Shown: piece after piece, positions 2,925 to 10,121 of the stretch
How positions within the stretch are numbered: position 1 is the first letter of the stretch
Layout: every line of letters starts with the position of its first letter
Source of the DNA: a virus
Taxonomy: Duplodnaviria > Heunggongvirae > Uroviricota > Caudoviricetes
Length of the DNA stretch: 10,133 nucleotides
Virus record (IMG/VR): IMGVR_UViG_2695420701_000015
Direction: 5' to 3' (one strand)
Notes under the pieces: generated by a model
Told to the model about the DNA's origin: nothing
The model's database searches: none
The model's input: only the letters and a program-made list of their open reading frames with translations
Made by a program: the position numbers and the translations under genes

Positions 2925-3138
2925 TGACAAAATGTCACCCGTGTTAGAGTTAGATAAGTTATTAGATAAAACATTAGATAATAATATTACAGATAAGAAT
3001 AAAGAGACTGGACTTAATGATGATATTAAAGAAGATGACTTTCTTTCTTTGGATGAATTAAATGATTTTCTCTCTATGAATGAATCTGACCTTGAAGTAA
3101 GCTCTAAAAAGGGTGATGCTGCCAACTTACTGATTTAG
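2887..3138 (+). pseudogene. Acidic C-terminal continuation of the rep-like gene in a shifted frame, 3'-truncated by IS1
   Basis: ORF 2887-3138 re-reads the second 15-bp repeat as SDKMS, the same peptide ORF 2535-2924 reads from the first repeat. Its last 9 codons (GDAANLLI-stop) are encoded by the IS1 left inverted repeat, so the native 3' end is missing. Confidence 0.35.
2901..2937 (+). repeat. Two exact 15-bp direct repeats AGTGACAAAATGTCA, 22-bp period, each containing the palindrome TGACA-N3-TGTCA
   Basis: Read directly: copies at 2901-2915 and 2923-2937. The 7-bp spacers differ (TGGGGGT versus CCCGTGT). Confidence 0.9.
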
Positions 3139-3450
3139 TGTATGATGGTGTTTTTGAGGTGCTCCAGTGGCTTCTGTTTCTATCAGCTGTCCCTCCTGTT
3201 CAGCTACTGACGGGGTGGTGCGTAACGGCAAAAGCACTGCCGGACATCAGCGCTATCTCTGCTCTCACTGCCGTAAAACATGGCAACTGCACGCATTATG
3301 GGCGTTGGCCTCAACACGATTTTACGTCACTTAAAAAACTCAGGCCGCAGTCGGTAACCTCGCGCATACAGCCGGGCAGTGACGTCATCGTCTGCGCGGA
3401 AATGGACGAACAGTGGGGCTATGTCGGGGCTAAATCGCGCCAGCGCTGGC
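3112..3450. mobile_element. IS1 remnant: intact left terminal inverted repeat, insA with internal deletion, start of insB; right part absent
   Basis: GGTGATGCTGCCAACTTACTGAT at 3112-3134 matches the IS1 left inverted repeat as I recall it. The following sequence encodes the InsA N-terminus ([41 protein letters not shown]). About 85 bp appear to be missing after 3291 relative to canonical IS1 (from memory). IS1-like sequence stops at 3450. The segment is visibly more GC-rich than its flanks. Confidence 0.8.
3167..3334 (+). pseudogene. insA: insA remnant (GTG start), frameshifted by the internal deletion
   Basis: Translation from GTG at 3167 gives the InsA N-terminus and then diverges after ...KTWQL into [14 protein letters not shown]-stop. 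The InsA C-terminal peptide [21 protein letters not shown] is encoded in a different frame. Confidence 0.7.
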
Positions 3451-3451
3451 A

Positions 3452-3684
3452 TAGGAATCTCTAGAGCAACTTATTACAGACTTGCTAAATAAGTTACTGA
3501 ATAGTTACATGGATGTAGCTGATATTTGGCTTTTTTGCCAAGGGGGTCACATAGCTGGTGTGACGGGTACTTAGCAGCTACAGACATCTGTCAGATATTT
3601 TTGAAGATTCGGGGAAGATGAGATTCAAAGAGGGCTAGTCATTTTTTATAAAAATTTTCAGATTCTGAAAAGTTACTGTACAGA
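3452..3684 (+). repeat. Copy C of the module: last about 13 codons of the recombinase gene plus downstream region
   Basis: TAGGAATCTCTAGAGCAACTTATTACAGACTTGCTAAATAA and the following about 190 bp match 549-587 and 1165-1356. It begins abruptly inside IS1-derived sequence. Confidence 0.85.
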
Positions 3685-4630
3685 TTTTGCACAATCCTAC
3701 CAAACCTCATAGTTGATTCGATTAGAAGCTAATCTCATAGAAAGCTCTGTAGCGAGTTTTAACCCCATTTTTAGGGGTAACCTATAGGGATGTACTAACC
3801 ACCTTAAAATAAAGGGGTAAAATCGCTTAGAATGCGTTACAGAGCGTCTGAGAAGCCATATTCACAGATTTTACTAAAACCTCAGACTTCTAAGTAGTCT
3901 TTTAACAGGAGGGGTTCCCCTATGGTCACATATCCCCTCTCTTTCCACTAAGTAAGCCTTAGCAGCACCTAAGCAACAATTGACTAACAGATTCGGTAGA
4001 GTCTATCTCATAGGTCAACTTCATAAACTCAGAGCTAAGTTACCTTGAAAGATTCTACCAAGAACTACACAGGTGTTATTTAGTCTGACTGTGAAGGGAT
4101 ATTTAACGGGAGAAGAGATACGATATAACCCGAAGGGAGAGTATCATCTTAACAATTATCTTAAGAATAAAACTGAAAAACTCTTAACAGATAACCACCT
4201 AGAAAGAAGGGAACGATAAGACCAGAGGTAGTGACCTGTTAAACAGGCTGTTTCAAAGTCTCTTAAAAGTCTGTTAAGTAAGGTCATGTGAACAATCTTA
4301 CCATTTTGTCAATGCTTTTGTCTTTGACCTAAATCAATAAAATGTATCGTTTGATATGCTTTTAAACAAAATAGCTAAAAAATCTTTTTTTAGAGGGGCG
4401 CTTCGCTTGGGGTCACTATGAATGATTTTTCTCTCGCTAAGAGAGCGCTTACAGAGGTCTTTCAAATCTCAATAGCCAGCCGAGGAACACAGGAAACCGA
4501 GGGAAGAAAAACTATTGTGATTACCTTGAACAAGGTCTGTAAAGGTCGTTTAAGAGGTCGGTTAAGAAAGGAGCTTCCCTCTCTGGGGTTATCGCTCTTC
4601 TCCCGATTAGTGGGGCGGTTAAGGGGGCTT

Positions 4631-4812
4631 GAAGTTATCTGTGAAGGTACTGGACAGTCTTATATATTGGGTGATTACAACTCGTTGAAAAATAAGCATT
4701 TTTAGAAGTTACTGTTAAGGTTGCAGAGTTGTCTGTGAAGAGACTTGTCAGTTCTCTATATATGGCTAATTACAACTTATTGAAAAATAAGAACTTTTAG
4801 AAATTACTGTCA
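4631..4812. repeat. Two imperfect tandem direct repeats, about 94-bp period
   Basis: TCTGTGAAG...TTGAAAAATAAG(C/A)A(T/C)TTTTAGAA(G/A)TTACTGT occurs twice, starting at 4638 and 4732, roughly 80 percent identical by eye. Confidence 0.8.
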
Positions 4813-4945
4813 GAGAGGTGAATGCTTGATAGACACAGCTTTCCGGTTCTGTCAAGCTATTTTTTAATAGATAGCACAAAATGCTAAAGACACCCCTGTA
4901 CCATAGACTTCTATCTGTCATCTCGTGCAGGGGTTTTGAAGGAGT

Positions 4946-5122
4946 TTAACGGGGGTCTGTGTGGTCGTTATCCTTAAGGTCAAGCGTCCATGTACGACCG
5001 AACAGTTTAAAGACAACAAGCACTCTGACGAGGACGTAGCGAAGTAGCAGGCCTGCAATCAGCCCAATACCTCCACCAGTCCATACATCAGGTGACCCCA
5101 GCTCAGGAGGGAGATTTACCAT
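4946..5122 (-). CDS. Candidate small membrane protein, 58 aa (MVNLPPELGSPDVWTGGGIGLIAGLLLRYVLVRVLVVFKLFGRTWTLDLKDNDHTDPR)
   Basis: Internal Met of ORF-track ORF 4946-5278 (-). AAGGA RBS 6 nt upstream on the minus strand. One predicted transmembrane helix with a charged C-terminus. The palindromic element 5137-5234 lies immediately upstream. Confidence 0.35.
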   Translation of the reverse strand: MVNLPPELGSPDVWTGGGIGLIAGLLLRYVLVRVLVVFKLFGRTWTLDLKDNDHTDPR

Positions 5123-5136
5123 TAGTTTTCCTTGTA

Positions 5137-5234
5137 AGACGCTCTCAATCGCATTCTGACACAAAAAGTACCTGACCTTATGAGTTGACCTGAAGAGGTC
5201 GTTTAACTCGTTACAGGGCGATTGAAGAGGTCTG
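5137..5234. repeat. Palindromic repeated element, copy 1 (terminal inverted repeats AGACGCTCTCAATCGC / GCGATTGAAGAGGTCTG)
   Basis: Both terminal arms are shared with copy 2 at 6765-6886; the central part differs. It sits immediately upstream of the RBS of the minus-strand small ORF. Confidence 0.8.
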
Positions 5235-5336
5235 TGTGCAATGCAAAATATGCGACCAAATACATAGCCACGCCTCATATTTTACTCTCCCCATAAACCC
5301 ATTATACCACAGATGTTACGAAAATGTTAAAAATAC

Positions 5337-5365
5337 TTGACATTAGTCTTTGAAAATGCTAATAT
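5337..5365 (+). promoter_or_regulatory. Candidate sigma70 promoter TTGACA-17 bp-TAATAT
   Basis: Consensus -35 and near-consensus -10 with 17-bp spacing, about 50 nt upstream of the 5417 ATG. The -10 is followed by TGTATATAT, as at the 7320 promoter. Confidence 0.55.
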
Positions 5366-5416
5366 TGTATATATAGGTTAACAGAATAATAACATCTTCT
5401 GAGAGTCAGAACATGA

Positions 5417-5974
5417 ATGCAGTATTCAGAATTTAGAGCGATGCTTCAGGCATCAAGAGAACGCAACAAGCACAACTCCTACGCTTACACAAACAACCCC
5501 ACCAGCTACGAAGTCCCAACCTTTAGCAAATCCGAACGTAAGAACATTGAAGCGGTCATTCGTAGCATTACGCCACGAGACAGATTTATGCCAGTACGCA
5601 AAACAACAAAGAATACTATTAAAAATTATCTGGCTAACTTTGACAGTTACGAGCAGTTACCAAGCAAGCTTGATGATGTTTTTATTGGGTTCTGTAGAAG
5701 TGAAGGCCACCCGAAATACAACAAAAAACTATTTTATCTGCTAAAGAATCTTGACGAAATTAACGCATCCACCGTGACAAATCATCTTCAGCGACAGGCA
5801 ACCAGACTTAGTTACGAATTACCAAGCGATAAATATTGCGCTTTGCTTGCTGTGATGTGCGCGAAATTAATTGGCATTGTTGAACATCATATTGCCGTTG
5901 GGAATATTGAGCCAATGGAAAACGAGCAACCAGATTTCGAGTTTGACCCCTATTTAGTTACAGAGGATTTTTAA
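5417..5974 (+). CDS. Hypothetical protein, 185 aa, acidic C-terminus
   Basis: Long ORF downstream of the candidate promoter; first gene of a run of tightly abutting ORFs. No family recognised. Confidence 0.7.
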   Translation: MQYSEFRAMLQASRERNKHNSYAYTNNPTSYEVPTFSKSERKNIEAVIRSITPRDRFMPVRKTTKNTIKNYLANFDSYEQLPSKLDDVFIGFCRSEGHPKYNKKLFYLLKNLDEINASTVTNHLQRQATRLSYELPSDKYCALLAVMCAKLIGIVEHHIAVGNIEPMENEQPDFEFDPYLVTEDF

Positions 5975-6253
5975 ATGAATAAACACACATTAACCAGAGT
6001 TACAAAGACAGCCTTTGATGAACTGAACCGAATCAAAAACATTACAGGTCTGCCACACTCAGCAGTGATGAAGCTTGCAATTAACCGTGATATTAACGAA
6101 CAGGATTTGCTTAATAGTCGCTTAGAGGCTGCAAGACACCATATCAGGATTAAGCAAGATGACCTTGATAGTCTGAAATCCTTAAATGCTTTTGGACTGG
6201 ATTTAGCAAGGTTACTAAGTATCAAAATTCACAAACTGTCTCAGGAGGTCTGA
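5975..6253 (+). CDS. Hypothetical small protein, 92 aa
   Basis: ATG immediately follows the upstream stop (TAAATG); GAGGA lies upstream. No family recognised. Confidence 0.65.
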   Translation: MNKHTLTRVTKTAFDELNRIKNITGLPHSAVMKLAINRDINEQDLLNSRLEAARHHIRIKQDDLDSLKSLNAFGLDLARLLSIKIHKLSQEV

Positions 6254-6255
6254 TT

Positions 6256-6528
6256 ATGAAGCAATGGCGAGATGATATTAAACGGTTCTTTGCAACTTAC
6301 TTCATGATTAATTATGAGACAGGAATGCTTGAATGGATTGATGGTGGAGAGGTTAAGACAAGAGATGATGCTTACGGTAATCCAATGATTCGTTATGGCA
6401 CTCGTGATTATTATCTGAAGTATGTCATCTGGTTTTTGCATCATGAAGTTCAGGCAACTAAAAAGATTATCTTCAGGGATGGTAATAAAAGAAATTGCCA
6501 CCCAAACAATTTACTCCTGGAGATTTAA
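6256..6528 (+). CDS. Small protein with degenerate HNH_3-like motif, 90 aa
   Basis: AGGAGG RBS 7 nt upstream. C-terminal half (YLKYVIWFLHH...IIFRDGNKRNCHPNNLLL) resembles the HNH_3/NUMOD4-type pattern (HRxVW...IDHIDGNxxNNxxxNLRL), but the DH of the catalytic motif is replaced by FR. Confidence 0.6.
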   Translation: MKQWRDDIKRFFATYFMINYETGMLEWIDGGEVKTRDDAYGNPMIRYGTRDYYLKYVIWFLHHEVQATKKIIFRDGNKRNCHPNNLLLEI

Positions 6529-6728
6529 TGTTATGTATTAAATTCGAATATTTGACAGATAAAATGATTAAGCATGTATCAGACCTGCTCATCAAAGAAG
6601 GTGGTTTCGGTGATGCTTGCAATCCAAAAGATATCTTCATTCATGCCACCAGCCCAAACGCAACACTAAAGACAGCAGTTACAGCGGAATGGTTTGAACG
6701 AAATAAAGCGGAATTAGGTTATTGGTAG
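6528..6728 (+). CDS. Hypothetical small protein, 66 aa (ATG start; the ORF track extends to 6495 via a TTG)
   Basis: ATG overlaps the upstream stop (TAATG), indicating translational coupling. Confidence 0.55.
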   Translation: MLCIKFEYLTDKMIKHVSDLLIKEGGFGDACNPKDIFIHATSPNATLKTAVTAEWFERNKAELGYW

Positions 6729-6764
6729 TCCGAGACTTTAAGAGAAATTAGAAAAACAGCTTAT

Positions 6765-6886
6765 CAGACGCTCTCAATCGCATTCTAACGCAAAAAACTA
6801 TCTTATTTTAGGGTGGGTAATACCACTGTACAGGCTACCCCTGAAAAAGACTGTTTAGCTCGTTACAGAGCGATTGAGGAGGTCTG
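6765..6886. repeat. Palindromic repeated element, copy 2 (CAGACGCTCTCAATCGC ... GCGATTGAGGAGGTCTG)
   Basis: Same terminal arms as copy 1 and an internal palindromic core. It ends about 20 nt before the ATG of the 6907 gene on the plus strand. Confidence 0.8.
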
Positions 6887-6906
6887 GTAAAAAGGAGATT
6901 TTAAAA

Positions 6907-7230
6907 ATGAACGAATATGAATTACAGATTTTCATTGATAGCGACACTGCTATGATGGTGCAGGCTTTCGCTGATTCCGGTGTATCAATTGACCTTGATA
7001 AATTACTAAAGCTAATGGCTGAAAACTCAGAAGAAATTGAAGACTTTATTCAGGAAATTGAAACTGGTGAACCGCGTTTTATGTTTCCTGTTACCGACTC
7101 AAACATGAAGCGTCTTATTATCGAAGAAACGAACAAATACAGCGTTAGCCCTGAAAAATATCTCAAGGCGGCTATAGCAATTTTGTATAGCGATAATATT
7201 CTGGTGACGGATTCGAAGGTGGTGCATTAA
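6907..7230 (+). CDS. Hypothetical acidic small protein, 107 aa (ATG at 6907; the ORF track start at 6874 is a TTG inside the repeat element)
   Basis: AAGGAG RBS 9 nt upstream of ATG 6907. Asp/Glu-rich. Confidence 0.7.
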   Translation: MNEYELQIFIDSDTAMMVQAFADSGVSIDLDKLLKLMAENSEEIEDFIQEIETGEPRFMFPVTDSNMKRLIIEETNKYSVSPEKYLKAAIAILYSDNILVTDSKVVH

Positions 7231-7295
7231 TGGAATTGGTGATTATCTGTTTTGTATTGATTGGTATGATTGCAGGTGCATCTATTAAAGTATAA
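7230..7295 (+). CDS. Candidate 21-aa hydrophobic peptide MELVIICFVLIGMIAGASIKV
   Basis: ATG overlaps the stop of the 6907 gene (TAATG). Almost entirely hydrophobic, roughly one transmembrane span. Too short for the ORF track. Confidence 0.35.
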   Translation: MELVIICFVLIGMIAGASIKV

Positions 7296-7319: not shown

Positions 7320-7348
7320 TTGACAAACAACCTTGAGCATGACATAAT
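7320..7348 (+). promoter_or_regulatory. Candidate sigma70 promoter TTGACA-17 bp-CATAAT
   Basis: Consensus -35 with 17-bp spacer, followed by TGTATATATGG as at the 5337 promoter. Confidence 0.5.
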
Positions 7349-7357
7349 TGTATATAT

Positions 7358-7385
7358 GGGGAGAGCAATTCTCTCTTATTTTTTC
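7358..7385 (+). terminator. Intrinsic-terminator-like hairpin (GGGAGAG-CAATT-CTCTC followed by TTATTTTTTC)
   Basis: Short stem followed by a T-run, 63 nt after the stop of the 7230-7295 ORF. It could terminate the 5417-7295 operon or attenuate transcripts from the 7320 promoter. Confidence 0.5.
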
Positions 7386-7516
7386 TTTCAATAATCCGAT
7401 GGATGGATATTCTGAGTTGGAAAGGTGCAATGCTTTTCGTCCTAGCCTTTCAGGTTGGTCTGAGAGGCTATCTCAAAAAGTCTTTGTTCATTCATTATTG
7501 AATCCTTTACAGCTTT

Positions 7517-7544
7517 GCCCTAATCATGAGTTAGGGCTTTCTTT
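7517..7544 (+). terminator. Hairpin GCCCTAA-N7-TTAGGGC followed by TTTCTTT
   Basis: Perfect 7-bp stem plus T-rich tail, read directly. Confidence 0.4.
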
Positions 7545-7613
7545 AAGAGTTTTTAAACAGAGCTTTTAAAGAAAGTTTTCCTGAAACTTCGTTAACGTTA
7601 TAAGCAAACCTCC

Positions 7614-7646
7614 AAAGCCCTTCACAGATTATGTTTAGGGCTTTTC
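7614..7646 (+). terminator. Hairpin AAAGCCC-N17-GGGCTTT with T-rich tail
   Basis: 7-bp stem read directly; shares the TTAGGGCTTT motif with the 7517 hairpin. Confidence 0.35.
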
Positions 7647-7717
7647 TTAATAGAGCATCTTTAATAAATCGTTAAGTCATCTTCTAAGTGTATTGGCGTT
7701 GAAGGTGCTCTATTAAG
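7646..7717 (+). promoter_or_regulatory. Perfect 12-bp inverted repeat CTTAATAGAGCA / TGCTCTATTAAG separated by 48 nt, just upstream of the RBS of the 7745 gene
   Basis: Read directly. The right arm ends 14 nt before AGAGG (7732-7736). Function unknown; could be an operator pair or a leader RNA stem. Confidence 0.5.
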
Positions 7718-7744
7718 AAATAACCACACTTAGAGGAAATTATA

Positions 7745-8455
7745 ATGACAAACGATTTATATATTAACGGTAAAAAGGTTGATAGCTTCGGAGACTGGTC
7801 ACCACAGGGTGAACATCCGCTACATACTATTCAGCGTCAAGAGCATGACAAGCGCATTGAGCTTGAGCAAGAGCTAAAGATGTCACCAAAGGTAATTTCC
7901 TTTGTGTCTCCTGAGCCTCAAGAAATGCCTGATATCTGCAAAACTGAAGCACTATTTGAGCTTGAGCGTGAATATTACCCAGCTTTAAAATCACAGCGTC
8001 TTAGACTTGATGTCGCTTACGATGCTGTTAAGAACTTCGAAGAAACCTCGAAACCTTCAGAATATGATATTGCTTACGAGATTAAGTCAAACCCGTTTAT
8101 CTATTATGAAGGAAACTTTAATGATGGTTTTGGTACAGCGATTGAAGACGTTCCTAAAGTTCTTCAAAGTATCCCTGAAGGGTTCCGGTTAATTGATGTC
8201 AGACAAGCATTAAGGGGTTCTGGTCAATTTATTCTGATGACTGATAAAACAGATGAAGAGATTCTTCAGTTAGCTGAAGCTAATTTGACTAAGCATTATT
8301 CCGGTAAACTGGATAAGTTAAAGCAAAAGCTTAAAAAAGAACTTGATACTATGAAAGAACTTGTTAGTGAATATGAGTCGCAGAAGAAGATTGCTTTGAT
8401 GGCTGATATTGAGCAGTTAACGAAGATTTCTCAGAAGTATAGCAAGGCTGTTTGA
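7745..8455 (+). CDS. Hypothetical protein, 236 aa, helical and charged C-terminal third
   Basis: AGAGG RBS 8 nt upstream. No family recognised. C-terminus rich in K/E/L, suggesting coiled coil. Confidence 0.75.
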   Translation: MTNDLYINGKKVDSFGDWSPQGEHPLHTIQRQEHDKRIELEQELKMSPKVISFVSPEPQEMPDICKTEALFELEREYYPALKSQRLRLDVAYDAVKNFEETSKPSEYDIAYEIKSNPFIYYEGNFNDGFGTAIEDVPKVLQSIPEGFRLIDVRQALRGSGQFILMTDKTDEEILQLAEANLTKHYSGKLDKLKQKLKKELDTMKELVSEYESQKKIALMADIEQLTKISQKYSKAV

Positions 8456-8477: not shown

Positions 8478-8687
8478 ATGTTTGAAGAACGTTTAGAGAC
8501 TATTCGGTCTGTTTGTGAAAACTTAAAGTTACAAACTAAGCCAGCCTTAAGAATTAAAAACAAACGTCAAGTTATCACCTCACACAAACCAAAAACACGC
8601 AAGATTCCAAAGTGGTGTATTGACCGTATTCCTTCTGATGCTCAAATCATAGGTGAAACGGAATTACATTATCTTGTCCGACATTAA
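8478..8687 (+). CDS. Hypothetical basic small protein, 69 aa
   Basis: AAGAGG upstream of the ATG; Lys/Arg-rich; followed by a terminator. Confidence 0.6.
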   Translation: MFEERLETIRSVCENLKLQTKPALRIKNKRQVITSHKPKTRKIPKWCIDRIPSDAQIIGETELHYLVRH

Positions 8688-8843: not shown

Positions 8844-10121
8844 ATGGCACAATTTAAAGTTGATGATTTTCTGATTGAGTTAAGTTTTAACTCTCAGAAA
8901 GTTTTAAAAGGCTTGGAAAAAGCCGAGAAACAAACGATGCAGGTAGCATCACGAATTGAGAAGCGATTGAATAAGTCGTTTAGAGTTAATCCTACGCCTT
9001 TAAATGATTCTCTCAAACTAATGGAAAGAAATGTCGATAAAACTGTTTCCAAGATTGAGCAGCGTCTTAAAAACACTAGAGCGTTTAAGATTAAAACTGA
9101 AATTGAGGATACTTTAAAGCCACTTAGACAACCAAGACAGCCACGAATTAGCGGAAGCAGAGCAATCACAGCAGCTTACTCAGCGAATATGAGCAAGCTT
9201 CGTGACTTTAATCCTATGCTTGAGAAGTATTTTAAAAGCCAGTATTACAGCTTAAGCAGTAAATCCAAGACACTTGGAAACGAAACTTTTAATCGTGAGT
9301 TAGCAAAGTTAAATCAGTCTCTTCGTGAAACACTTTCTAAGTTTAACAAGACCACCAGCAAAAATAATCACAGTGAAAATGCTTCAAATAGTCTGGATGT
9401 ATTAGCTACGAGTGCAATCAAAGCAGGTACAGCCATTTATAGTTTTCAGACAGCCTTAGAAGCTTACAGGCGGATTATGGAGGTTGGTCTGAAAAAAGAA
9501 GCATCACAACGAGCGGCACAATTCGTTTTAGGTGATGAAGGTGCTAAACGAGCTACAGAATTTGTTAAGAATCTTGCTGATAGTAGTGGTGTAGACCAGA
9601 TTGAAACATTAAGCAGTTTTGCTAAGTTTTCCGCTGGTGCTGGTGATATGAATGCAGACCAGAAAGAATCCTTATTTTCTAATGTGATTGGTACATCCAG
9701 ATTAATGGGGCTAAGCACCGATGAAATTAACGGGATTTTAAAAGCTTTCGAGCAGATGGCATCTAAAGGAAAGATTCAGGCTGAAGAGCTACGCGGTCAA
9801 TTAGGTGACAGAATGGCAGGTGCTTTTCAGTTATTTGCCAGAAGTCTTGGGATGACTACGGAAGAATTAGACAAGGCCATGAAAGACGGTAAGGTTCTTT
9901 CTAAAGATGTTCTTCCTAAAGTATCCGCTGAAATGGGAAGGATGATTGATAAAGCTGGTGGATGGGAAAAGATTATTAACTCTACTCAGACGCAGTTAGG
10001 CCGCTTAAGTAATTCATGGAATAATAATCTGGCCTTAATGTTCGATGGTTCACAGGAAGGTTTAACAGACTTTACAAGGTCACTGACTAATTTACTTAAT
10101 TCACTAAATAGCTGCGCTTAA
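8844..10121 (+). CDS. Tape-measure-domain protein, 425 aa
   Basis: AAAGAGGTG RBS 10 nt upstream. Residues about 290-380 (GILKAFEQMASKGKIQAEELRGQLGDRMAGAFQLFARSLGMTTEELDKAMKDGKVLSKDVLPKVSAEMGR) match the conserved phage tail tape-measure N-terminal-type domain pattern as I recall it. Predicted helical N-terminal half. Complete ORF with TAA at 10119-10121. Confidence 0.8.
   Translation: MAQFKVDDFLIELSFNSQKVLKGLEKAEKQTMQVASRIEKRLNKSFRVNPTPLNDSLKLMERNVDKTVSKIEQRLKNTRAFKIKTEIEDTLKPLRQPRQPRISGSRAITAAYSANMSKLRDFNPMLEKYFKSQYYSLSSKSKTLGNETFNRELAKLNQSLRETLSKFNKTTSKNNHSENASNSLDVLATSAIKAGTAIYSFQTALEAYRRIMEVGLKKEASQRAAQFVLGDEGAKRATEFVKNLADSSGVDQIETLSSFAKFSAGAGDMNADQKESLFSNVIGTSRLMGLSTDEINGILKAFEQMASKGKIQAEELRGQLGDRMAGAFQLFARSLGMTTEELDKAMKDGKVLSKDVLPKVSAEMGRMIDKAGGWEKIINSTQTQLGRLSNSWNNNLALMFDGSQEGLTDFTRSLTNLLNSLNSCA

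Follow-up and report, generated by a model that had tools for sequence, protein, structure and literature searches.

P4 satellites carry the cos site of P2, the site by which the DNA ends of their helper are recognized. The PICIs are defined by a tyrosine integrase, AlpA/Stl-type regulators, a primase-replicase, and a TerS or capsid-morphogenesis gene, with no tail genes (PMC10085698), and the SatelliteFinder models list tail proteins as "forbidden" (PMC10085698). Packaging in Felixounaviruses uses direct terminal repeats (DTRs), the repeat of Pr103Blw being reported as 581 bp (PMC8303462), and the gene that follows the tape measure protein (TMP) gene has been described as a place of exchange between E. 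coli chromosomes and a Felixounavirus, with no prophage found there by PHASTER (PMC11069274). We found no description in the literature of the island reported here or of a Felix O1 satellite.

The stretch of DNA that we analyzed (10,133 nt; IMG/VR record IMGVR_UViG_2695420701_000015; here called the window) is a chromosomal island of Shigella sonnei, and neither a plasmid nor a phage replicon. Intact E. coli copies of the island are ~11.2 kb long; the copy of A0 34/86, at 3,017,583-3,028,738 of NZ_CP120567, measures 11,156 bp with exact borders. Integration is at the start codon of tonB (the first ~11 nt of the gene), and the right end of the intact island, outside the window, encodes the large serine recombinase that inserts it there, a protein of 506 aa with Resolvase, Recombinase, and Zn_ribbon_recom domains. 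The GC content of the island is 39.5%, versus 48 to 50% in its flanks and 38.8% in phage JH2. Relatives are present in 514 of 5426 complete E. coli genomes (~9%), and named relatives also come from Shigella, Salmonella, Citrobacter, and E. albertii, with the island itself found in many S. sonnei genomes; a search of GTDB species representatives added only one locus, in E. albertii. A megablast search with the six-gene region against 72,556 plasmids and 50,697 phages gave zero matches, and the whole window matched plasmid or phage records only through an IS1 fragment and one 96-nt patch. Among metagenome contigs of ~11 kb checked for a free circular form, the island lay between chromosomal flanks, and none of the contigs was circular or had a terminal overlap. 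The initial annotation had placed small orphan genes on a mobile plasmid or phage replicon; orphan, mobile, and phage-related they are, but all 564 E. coli matches lie on chromosomes.

Several features recall the PLE. Both are small chromosomal islands with a large serine recombinase at one end, a sizeable repeat-bearing noncoding region, and almost exclusively orphan genes, and for both the apparent partner is a virulent myophage. The island's small putative nuclease and small membrane protein are comparable to NixI and LidI of the PLE (PMC9410903, PMC10085698). Searches of Pfam, PHROGs, NCBIfam, and PADLOC, all general libraries, showed no homology of island proteins to PLE markers such as capR, repA, nixI, and lidI. 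In contrast to the PLE, the island is 11 kb rather than ~18 kb long, resides in Enterobacteriaceae, and has tail genes (TMP and a Dit-like hub) as well as a copy of the helper's terminal-repeat boundary. With the PICIs and cfPICIs of Enterobacteriaceae it has in common the 10- to 15-kb size class, site-specific integration, and divergent promoters at the start of the early operon; some of those elements also have HNH genes, and some need helper packaging signals. However, its integrase is a serine and not a tyrosine recombinase, and searches of Pfam, PHROGs, and NCBIfam found no AlpA, Stl-like repressor, primase-replicase, TerS, or Ppi/Rpp. Unlike a cfPICI, it has no capsid, portal, protease, head-tail connector, or terminase genes of its own within its 11 kb (for capsid, portal, and terminase genes, none in the whole island by Pfam and PHROGs). 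More generally, islands with o1 to o4 (see below) yielded no recognizable replication initiator, primase, repressor, small terminase, or capsid-remodeling gene in Pfam, PHROGs, or NCBIfam. The tail proteins that it does encode are those forbidden in the SatelliteFinder models; satellite finders now in use exclude such elements by design, because of the tail genes on board. Like P4, it is an integrative element of enterobacteria that would rely on a helper virion and on a copy of the helper's DNA-end site; unlike P4, it has no Psu, Sid, Delta, alpha primase, or tyrosine integrase, and its presumed helper is a virulent phage that uses DTR packaging.

The genes considered here are as follows.

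o1, 5417-5974, plus strand: 185-aa protein of an orphan family (ORF)
o2, 5975-6253, plus strand: 92-aa basic protein, pI 9.8 (ORF, TAAATG junction)
o3, 6256-6528, plus strand: 90-aa minimal HNH_3 protein (ORF; Pfam and PHROG HNH families)
o4, 6528-6728, plus strand: 66-aa protein (ORF, TAATG overlap)
o5, 6907-7230, plus strand: 107-aa acidic protein, pI 4.25 (ORF)
o6, 7230-7295, plus strand: 21-aa hydrophobic peptide, single helix (TAATG overlap; GRAVY 2.2)
o7, 7745-8455, plus strand: downstream core gene
o8, 8478-8687, plus strand: downstream core gene
TMP gene, 8844-10121, plus strand: tape measure gene, cut short in the window (Pfam TMP_3 and PHROG tape-measure matches)

The reading that we favor, with modest confidence, is that o1 to o6 are the early, sigma-70-driven gene set of an island that acts like a satellite of the Felix O1-type virulent myophages (Felixounavirus). 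The six ORFs, all on the plus strand, are as the initial annotation had described them, and so are their abutting or overlapping stops and starts: TAAATG (o1/o2), TGAttATG (o2/o3), and TAATG twice (o3/o4 and o5/o6). A comparison of gene neighborhoods found the set conserved as the same block in related elements (E. coli, IMG/VR, and metagenome loci), contrary to the absence of such a block that the initial annotation had named as a refutation, and dN/dS values of 0.04 to 0.36 indicate that all six are real genes under purifying selection. Family assignments in Pfam, PHROGs, NCBIfam, and PADLOC were limited to HNH_3 for o3 and tape measure for the downstream gene. PDB searches by sequence and by profile gave chance-level matches only, and tblastn of o1 to o5, o7, and o8 against 50,697 phage records returned nothing at E <= 0.01.

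By profile match, o3 is the only one of the six products that can be named. In the window its score against Pfam HNH_3 (PF13392) is 22.7 bits (E = 7.5e-5), below the gathering threshold of 24.8, and Phe replaces the first catalytic His (IIFRDGN, compared with IIHRNGN in other islands and VMHKDGN in a phage-like relative), in keeping with the degenerate HNH-like product noted at the outset. The 95-aa allele of other islands retains the catalytic His and reaches 34.3 bits; on these scores the o3 gene slot is therefore assigned to HNH_3, with the window allele as a borderline member. Some HNH proteins, for example HK97 gp74, assist terminases. As a stand-alone HNH protein of ~90 aa adjoining a small DNA-binding-like protein, o3 resembles them, but it belongs to HNH_3, its window allele lacks the catalytic His, and the island has no terminase gene.

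For o1 (dN/dS of 0.12 to 0.15), there was no match in Pfam or PDB, and a HMMER search of 1.84 billion clusters found 19 representatives, mostly fragments, plus three unannotated remote relatives. Remote relatives of o1 come from an analogous island (L029) and from a phage-like contig (L031), and in a phage-like contig the gene for one such relative precedes those for HNH_3, TerL, and portal. Amino acid identity of o2 between island types is 59 to 62%, with synonymous sites saturated, and its profile matches, to DndE (15 bits) and the P27 small terminase, are all subthreshold. A strand-helix-helix pattern read by eye from the sequence is suggestive of a ribbon-helix-helix (RHH) DNA binder for o2. 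Neither o2 nor o5 had an RHH match in Pfam, a profile match in PDB, or any BLASTP match to CopG; the RHH reading comes from pattern only, that of the sequence for o2 and that of a low-confidence model for o5, and lacks statistical support. Against distant alleles, the dN/dS of o4 is ~0.13, and the order of o3 and o4 is swapped in some islands. The family of o5 (dN/dS of 0.09 to 0.36) comprises 3132 clusters at 90%, every one named hypothetical. AlphaFold2 models, computed for o1 and o5 from alignments of little diversity (84% identity or more throughout), are of low confidence: o1 is predicted to be all-helical (mean pLDDT of 51) and o5 to contain two strand-helix units (pLDDT of 41). The 21-aa hydrophobic peptide o6, as first described, is present in every locus with its TAATG overlap kept, in two alleles of 21 and 25 aa.

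The link to the Felix O1-type phages comes from tail genes and from genome ends. In E. coli, the intact TMP is 691 aa and is followed by the Dit-like gene and then by the recombinase. It is 28 to 34% identical, over its full length, to the Felixounavirus TMP, the Dit-like protein is 65 to 71% identical to a protein of 253+ Felixounavirus records, and the order of the two genes is that of gp088-gp087 in JH2. Homology to the phage ends is found in two elements.

3452-3693, minus strand: copy of the Felixounavirus left terminal-repeat boundary region (repeat family D1; other copies at 547-788 and 1124-1365)
4189-4258, minus strand: patch with homology to an inner part of the phage terminal repeat, from +279 to +334 (alignment)

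The first element has 79 to 86% nucleotide identity to positions 84738-84918 of JH2. This element and its two other copies also align to the concatemer junction of ECP2307, at which an exact 592-bp DTR begins, and the alignment crosses this boundary, running from about -110 to +70. The 24-nt insertion of JH2 is present in one of the island copies, and the remaining copies have the shorter form of ECP2307. Of the phage DTR, the island has only the left boundary and the one internal patch, in an order that is not collinear with the phage. Among phage records that match the noncoding region of the island, 53 of 54 are Felix O1-like.

It could be that the similarity of terminus and tail genes was inherited from a Felix O1-like ancestor and is not maintained for hijacking. 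Alternatively, the island may be what is left of a Felix O1-related prophage, temperate or ancient, that is in decay; its ORFs would then be early genes that stayed behind and have no role today, and its phage-like noncoding patches would be inherited. Homologous tail genes and terminus-like DNA would fit such a remnant, as would the lack of replication and packaging genes recognizable in Pfam or NCBIfam. So would the S. sonnei copies, which are truncated and full of IS elements: in the window's own host the island is damaged, its TMP is truncated, and IS1 and further IS elements lie close by, and IS1 sits within o5 in most S. sonnei copies. Yet independent E. coli lineages and other genera have the same compact layout of 11.2 kb with exact borders, the loci that we inspected included no larger prophage version, and purifying selection extends to all ORFs, even the one of 21 aa. 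In addition, the noncoding control regions are better conserved than the coding DNA, and modules have been exchanged between islands at three different integration sites; members of the family occupy tonB, wrbA, and yecE/aspS, among others. We therefore regard a prophage remnant as unlikely.

The control elements of the early region are as follows.

P1, 5337-5365, plus strand: sigma-70 promoter TTGACA-17-TAATAT with a TGn extended -10 (consensus scan and conservation)
Divergent promoter, 5301-5330, minus strand: TTAACA-18-TATAAT, back-to-back with P1 (scan 11/12; kept in all islands)
P2, 7320-7386, plus strand: TTGACA-17-CATAAT with an immediate hairpin/T-run (scan 11/12; heads a ~400-nt conserved leader before o7)
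Element A, 5128-5236, plus strand: sister copy of element B upstream of P1, within the 5' leader of the 58-aa gene on the minus strand
Element B, 6757-6890, plus strand: imperfect palindrome of ~130 nt that separates o4 from o5 (alignment; repeat families D7, D8, and I23)
58-aa gene, 4946-5122, minus strand: single-pass membrane protein (intact in 6 islands, with conservative changes)

From the left, the island consists of the terminal-repeat boundary copy, a highly conserved control region of ~750 bp (tandem 95-bp repeats, the 58-aa membrane protein gene, and the divergent promoters), and o1 to o4. These are followed by palindrome B, o5 and o6, the second promoter with its long leader, o7, o8, TMP, the tail-hub gene, and the recombinase. 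The promoter of the initial annotation is P1, found where it had been placed. Promoter consensus matches alone are at chance level (24 found versus 25.8 expected from shuffles). Positions 5262-5416, however, are near-invariant in seven islands that differ at 40 to 80% of synonymous sites in coding DNA, which puts them among the most conserved stretches of the locus, and the -35 of P1 is invariant. Judged from consensus and conservation, P1 drives o1 to o4 and probably also o5 and o6.

A sister island at wrbA (L047) shows how the block is divided. Here o1 to o4 are replaced by a Dam methylase, a Rep-like protein (326 aa, HTH_36), and three ORFs, and the island retains an o5-like gene (34% identity), the transmembrane peptide, P2, o7, o8, TMP, and the recombinase; its terminus element is also kept, at 96.7% identity. 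Because the sister island swaps o1 to o4 but retains o5, o6, and everything downstream, the supposed single operon of six genes is, on this comparison, two evolutionary modules (o1 to o4 and o5 to o6) split by palindrome B. Element B, almost invariant in 12 islands and missing from the sister island, which is without o1 to o4, is the border between the exchangeable module and the core module. Translational coupling, as first proposed for all six genes, agrees with the other junctions but not with o4/o5, where a gap of 178 nt holds this conserved, structured palindrome. A terminator-like hairpin downstream is indeed present; it sits after the second promoter, directly 3' of P2 (hairpin and T-run at 7358-7385), and its T-run is missing in some islands, while P2 proper (7320-7348) is invariant across islands.

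The sister island also bears on the function first suggested for these genes, namely, anti-restriction or anti-defense by an island, located on a plasmid or phage, in which small acidic proteins are encoded close to an orphan Dam-like methylase. Dam-family methylases are a recurrent member of the island family, and in a third, remote island (L029) the methylase is paired with an o1-like protein. Of the two proteins described as acidic, o5 is strongly so, whereas o1 has a pI of 7.0 and only an acidic C-terminal tail (ending ...EDF). The methylase is not a fixed neighbor, however. In the window it lies 3.2 kb upstream as a truncated fragment only, within a 2.3-kb fragment between 242-bp repeats, which by its sequence derives from the alternative early module of the sister island; the methylase module is thus an alternative to o1 to o4 and not their partner. 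No product of o1 to o5 matched the ArdA, KlcA/ArdB, or Ocr families (Pfam and PHROG) at E <= 1, nor was there similarity to other anti-restriction or anti-defense families in Pfam, PHROGs, NCBIfam, or PADLOC. With the element found only on chromosomes as well, we consider this proposal very improbable.

It is also important to consider whether the genes are a stand-alone anti-phage defense or toxin-antitoxin cassette, carried as island cargo. In that case, infected cells would be killed or arrested by an HNH effector together with small DNA-binding regulators and small membrane peptides, and satellite transfer would play no part. Defense genes are common on satellites and islands (PMC10085698), and the homologies of this island are phage specific. 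The HNH_3 protein has its catalytic His intact in many islands, and both o6 and the product of the divergent 58-aa gene, a gene with a long structured leader, are small membrane peptides of the single-pass type. On the other hand, ten island proteins matched none of the 5027 PADLOC models, the window o3 is conserved despite lacking the catalytic His, and a cassette of this kind would leave unexplained both the terminus copy and the swap of o1 to o4 with a methylase and Rep-like module. Such a cassette therefore seems to us a poor prospect.

Under the satellite reading, infection by a Felix O1-like phage would lead to excision and amplification of the island. The terminus mimic is the presumed target of the terminase, through which the island would be cut or packaged, and exit would take place in helper capsids with tails bearing the island's own tape measure and hub proteins. 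The o1 to o4 genes would be an exchangeable module for replication and DNA handling, in which o1 occupies the slot of the Rep-like initiator of the sister island, o2 is a small, basic, putative DNA binder, and o3 may be a nuclease or an accessory for the terminase or a DNA site. The core pair, an acidic protein (o5) and a membrane peptide (o6), may act alongside the late module, e.g., to set timing or control lysis. Our comparisons show that the genes are real and conserved as a block, that the island is modular and has defined borders, and that its tail genes and terminus are homologous to those of the phages, while induction, replication, packaging, and the role of each protein are inferred. 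A more specific version, which we put forward only tentatively, is that of an undescribed enterobacterial satellite family on strictly virulent Felix O1-type phages, with, in contrast to known satellites, its own TMP and tail hub and with packaging via the terminal-repeat-boundary copy. In that version, o1 to o6 would be entirely new hijack, replication, and interference proteins, with o1 to o4 as one of at least two interchangeable early modules.

Felix O1-type phages are the classic typing phages of Salmonella, and close relatives are widely proposed for biocontrol or therapy against E. coli, Shigella, and Salmonella. If the island copies phage genome ends and tail-initiation genes, it could act as a specific parasite of these phages. 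Found in about one of every eleven complete E. coli genomes, it could then lower phage yield or alter tails, and it could carry host DNA between cells. It would also give the PLE-ICP1 system a counterpart among enterobacteria, where the host is tractable, and, under the satellite reading, its six conserved orphan proteins would be a compact source of new phage-directed functions.

Some further observations concern individual elements. We considered o1 as a remote homolog of the Rep-like protein in the same slot and rejected this on an hhalign probability of 0.2%. A TTAACAG-type iteron common to phage and island noncoding DNA (16 per kb versus ~2.6 in the phage, weak in the island) was likewise dropped. 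An Rfam scan of the entire window gave no match at E <= 1. The longer, 110-aa reading of the 58-aa gene is broken in relatives, and the 58-aa gene is annotated in E. coli O103:H2. P1 and P2 have TGTATATAT in common, located after the -10. Copies of palindromes A and B are too conserved for covariation; the RNA fold of element B has a predicted energy of -52.8 kcal/mol (z = -4.8), and in element A, as read from the sequences, A...C mismatches on the plus strand would be G-U pairs on the minus strand.

The six small plus-strand ORFs that the initial annotation had assigned to one promoter-driven operon (o1 to o6: 5417-5974, 5975-6253, 6256-6528, 6528-6728, 6907-7230, and 7230-7295) lie at the claimed places, with junctions reading TAAATG, TGAttATG, TAATG, and TAATG, and all are under purifying selection (dN/dS 0.04 to 0.36). 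The promoter ahead of o1 (P1; TTGACA-17-TAATAT, 5337-5365) was confirmed and includes a TGn extended -10. As promoter-consensus matches are not enriched in the window (24 observed versus 25.8 expected), the scan by itself proves nothing; P1 is supported by comparison of related loci, because 5262-5416 is almost invariant among seven islands whose coding DNA differs at 40 to 80% of synonymous sites. Translational coupling of all six genes holds in part: junctions abut or overlap, but o4 and o5 are 178 nt apart, and the gap contains a conserved palindrome. The hairpin said to follow the operon is present, with a T-run (7358-7385), but sits directly behind a second promoter, P2.

The operon had been placed on a mobile replicon. 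Megablast with the operon matched no plasmid and no phage. Thousands of Shigella sonnei assemblies encode proteins identical to those of the operon, on ~4.8-Mb chromosomes full of IS elements, and relatives with 80 to 90% identity are carried by 514 of the 5426 complete E. coli genomes, all of them chromosomal. In E. coli A0 34/86, O103:H2 strain 129, and GPEC673, an intact, compact island lies between yciI and tonB.

Intact E. coli island, in order
optional small serine recombinase
~2 kb with no annotated gene
proteins of 185, 92, 90 (HNH), 66, and 107 aa
proteins of 236 and ~70 aa
tape-measure protein, 685-696 aa
256-aa "baseplate" (Dit-like) protein
large serine recombinase, 506 aa

Comparison with the empty K-12 site (1311087-1311099) sets the island at 11,156 bp, inserted inside the first ~11 nt of tonB (17274 and 28429 in the A0 34/86 locus, L017). 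The tonB ORF is rebuilt at the right junction and, because insertion is at its start, 11 kb of island now lies between it and its native upstream region. The GC content is 39.5%, against 48 to 50% in the flanks. The window's tape-measure gene is truncated, leaving 425 aa. Also in the window, the 3' part of a small serine recombinase gene (resolvase/invertase type, 36-587) recurs with 99% identity at 808-1164 (repeat 197-496/774-1073); E. coli islands vary at this slot, having either a different 191-aa recombinase in the opposite orientation or none.

A sister island at wrbA, found in E. coli WP7-S17-ESBL-04, shows that the six genes belong to two modules rather than to one operon.

Sister island, in order
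boundary element (described below)
Dam methylase, 89% identical to that of the window
326-aa HTH_36 Rep-like protein, whose first 127 residues match the truncated 129-aa ORF of the window at 99% identity
three small ORFs
unannotated o5 homologue (34% identical) and overlapping 25-aa hydrophobic peptide
second promoter and leader, same as the P2 region
o7 and o8 (the two genes after the operon), tape measure, serine recombinase

The sister island keeps o5-like and o6-like genes and all that follows, and therefore o5-o6 and everything downstream constitute the core. By this comparison, the exchangeable early module is the block running from the ~1.7-kb noncoding region through a 58-aa gene, palindrome A, and P1 to o1-o4 and palindrome B, and the methylase and Rep-like genes form the alternative to it. 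A fragment of that alternative is found in the window itself.

Methylase segment
1366-3451, fragment of the sister-type module, flanked by two boundary-element copies (242-bp direct repeats)
1509-2171, Dam-family methylase with C-terminal HTH_7
2535-2924, Rep-like fragment, first 127 residues of the 326-aa HTH_36 protein
3094-3450, IS1 fragment closing the segment

This explains the picture of small proteins beside an orphan Dam-like methylase, from which an anti-restriction island had been proposed; we now regard that proposal as very improbable. In a third, remote island, at yecE/aspS, the methylase (51% identical) occurs together with an o1 relative of 274 aa, a small resolvase, a TMP_3 protein, and a serine recombinase of 541 aa. 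The o3/o4 pair is also variable: some islands have it in swapped order, with a divergent HNH, and one has a 128-aa HTH protein in its place.

Several features link the island to Felix O1-type phages. More than 250 Felixounavirus records contain a protein 65 to 71% identical to the Dit-like protein, and the tape-measure protein is 28 to 34% identical to its Felixounavirus counterpart over the full length. In phage JH2 (GC 38.8%), these counterparts are adjacent and in the same order, gp088 then gp087. Of the 54 phage records matched by island noncoding DNA, 53 are Felix O1-like, and the matched phage DNA is unannotated in every case. Felixounaviruses package using direct terminal repeats (PMC8303462, PMC11737134), and each end of the linear ECP2307 phage record consists of an exact copy of a 592-bp repeat, to which two island elements align.

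Terminal-repeat similarities
547-788, 1124-1365, and 3452-3693, boundary element (~240 bp, three copies), aligning across the left boundary of the ECP2307 repeat from about -110 to +70
4189-4258, second patch (50-70 nt), 83-84% identical to +279 to +334 inside the 592-bp repeat

The 24-nt insertion known from JH2 is present in one boundary copy, and the other two are of the shorter ECP2307-type form; the second patch and the boundary copy are not collinear. Noncoding similarity to the phages (79 to 86%) is above that expected from tape-measure gene divergence, and the boundary element is also retained in the sister island. We infer that the island may maintain it as a copy of the terminase target of the helper. 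In JH2, the terminal repeat lies in a 1.7-kb gene-free region (84.2-85.9 kb; L021 40200-41950) with dense TTAACAG-type motifs spaced 11 bp apart (16 per kb versus ~2.6 elsewhere). In addition, the 58-nt stretch 1391-1448, which lies upstream of the methylase gene, shares 86% identity with JH2 intergenic 76765-76820 and contains a GGATATC palindrome.

The best-supported reading, toward which we lean modestly, treats the operon as the early module of a satellite-like island exploiting Felix O1-type virulent phages. Metagenome contigs of island size had chromosomal flanks and gave no direct sign of mobilisation. As a phage satellite, such an island would be closest in its logic to PLE. Exchange between Felixounavirus and the E. 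coli chromosome has been reported in the gene after the tape measure, where PHASTER gave no prophage (PMC11069274). We found no description in the literature of this island or of any satellite of Felix O1-type phages. SatelliteFinder would miss islands of the present type, since its PICI and cfPICI models allow no tail genes (PMC10085698).

Conservation in the locus is highest at 4670-5420 (0.87 to 0.99 identity), which includes two tandem ~95-bp repeats.

Regulatory elements
4946-5122, minus strand, 58-aa single-pass membrane protein gene, intact in six islands (a longer 110-aa reading is broken)
5128-5236, palindrome A, almost invariant in a dozen islands
5330-5301, minus strand, conserved promoter back-to-back with P1
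6757-6890, palindrome B, sister of A, almost invariant in a dozen islands (fold -52.8 kcal/mol, z = -4.8)
7320-7348, P2, invariant, sharing with P1 TGTATATAT after the -10

Palindromes A and B bracket the exchangeable o1-o4 module. Their imperfect-palindrome family has arms AGACGCTCTCAATCGCATTCT and CGTTACAGAGCGATTGAGGAGGTCT and a third member, a half copy at 3829-3855. From the minus-strand promoter, the 5' leader of the 58-aa gene is the reverse complement of palindrome A; a hairpin and T-run occur near the start (5271-5252). The tandem repeats (4633-4810; 0.90 to 0.98 identical across islands, exceeding gene conservation) are a candidate origin or protein-binding array. The hairpin directly 3' of P2, whose T-run is not present in all islands, is followed by a ~400-nt leader with conserved blocks before o7 (7320-7744 for the region from P2 to o7). 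This layout suggests, speculatively, regulated read-through into the tail-gene operon and is reminiscent of antitermination-controlled late operons. A second terminator-like hairpin lies in the leader at 7517-7537.

A decaying prophage remnant could also carry phage-like tail genes, but the exact architecture recurs, every ORF is under selection, noncoding elements are hyper-conserved, and modules are exchanged among islands with different integration sites; we consider a mere remnant unlikely.

As for the products, o1-o5, o7, and o8 had no relative among 50,697 phage records or in PDB or PADLOC. A stand-alone defence or toxin cassette, the other alternative, seems to us improbable. The degenerate HNH-like product is indeed o3, a minimal HNH_3 protein whose window allele falls just under the Pfam threshold with Phe at the catalytic His position; a 95-aa allele in other islands is above threshold and retains His. 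The o1 family is tiny (19 representatives among 1.84 billion clusters), with remote relatives in the yecE island and in a phage-like contig, where the gene stands first in an early-looking operon that precedes HNH_3, TerL, and portal genes; o1 has no profile similarity to the Rep-like protein. Two products had been called acidic; only o5 clearly is (pI 4.25), and o1 is neutral with an acidic tail. Inspected by eye, the sequences of o5 and the basic o2 show a recurring strand-helix-helix pattern, which may represent ribbon-helix-helix units; statistical support was sought and none obtained. AlphaFold2 models of o1 and o5 were too poor for use. The 21-aa hydrophobic product, o6, is a single helix retained across related loci, with the TAATG overlap kept everywhere and two hydrophobic alleles (21 and 25 aa). 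Finally, o7 (7745-8455, 236 aa, coiled-coil C terminus) shares just 24% identity between island types and is wrongly annotated as "transposase" in some RefSeq genomes; it and o8 (8478-8687, 69 aa, basic) are orphans always found ahead of the island's tape-measure gene.
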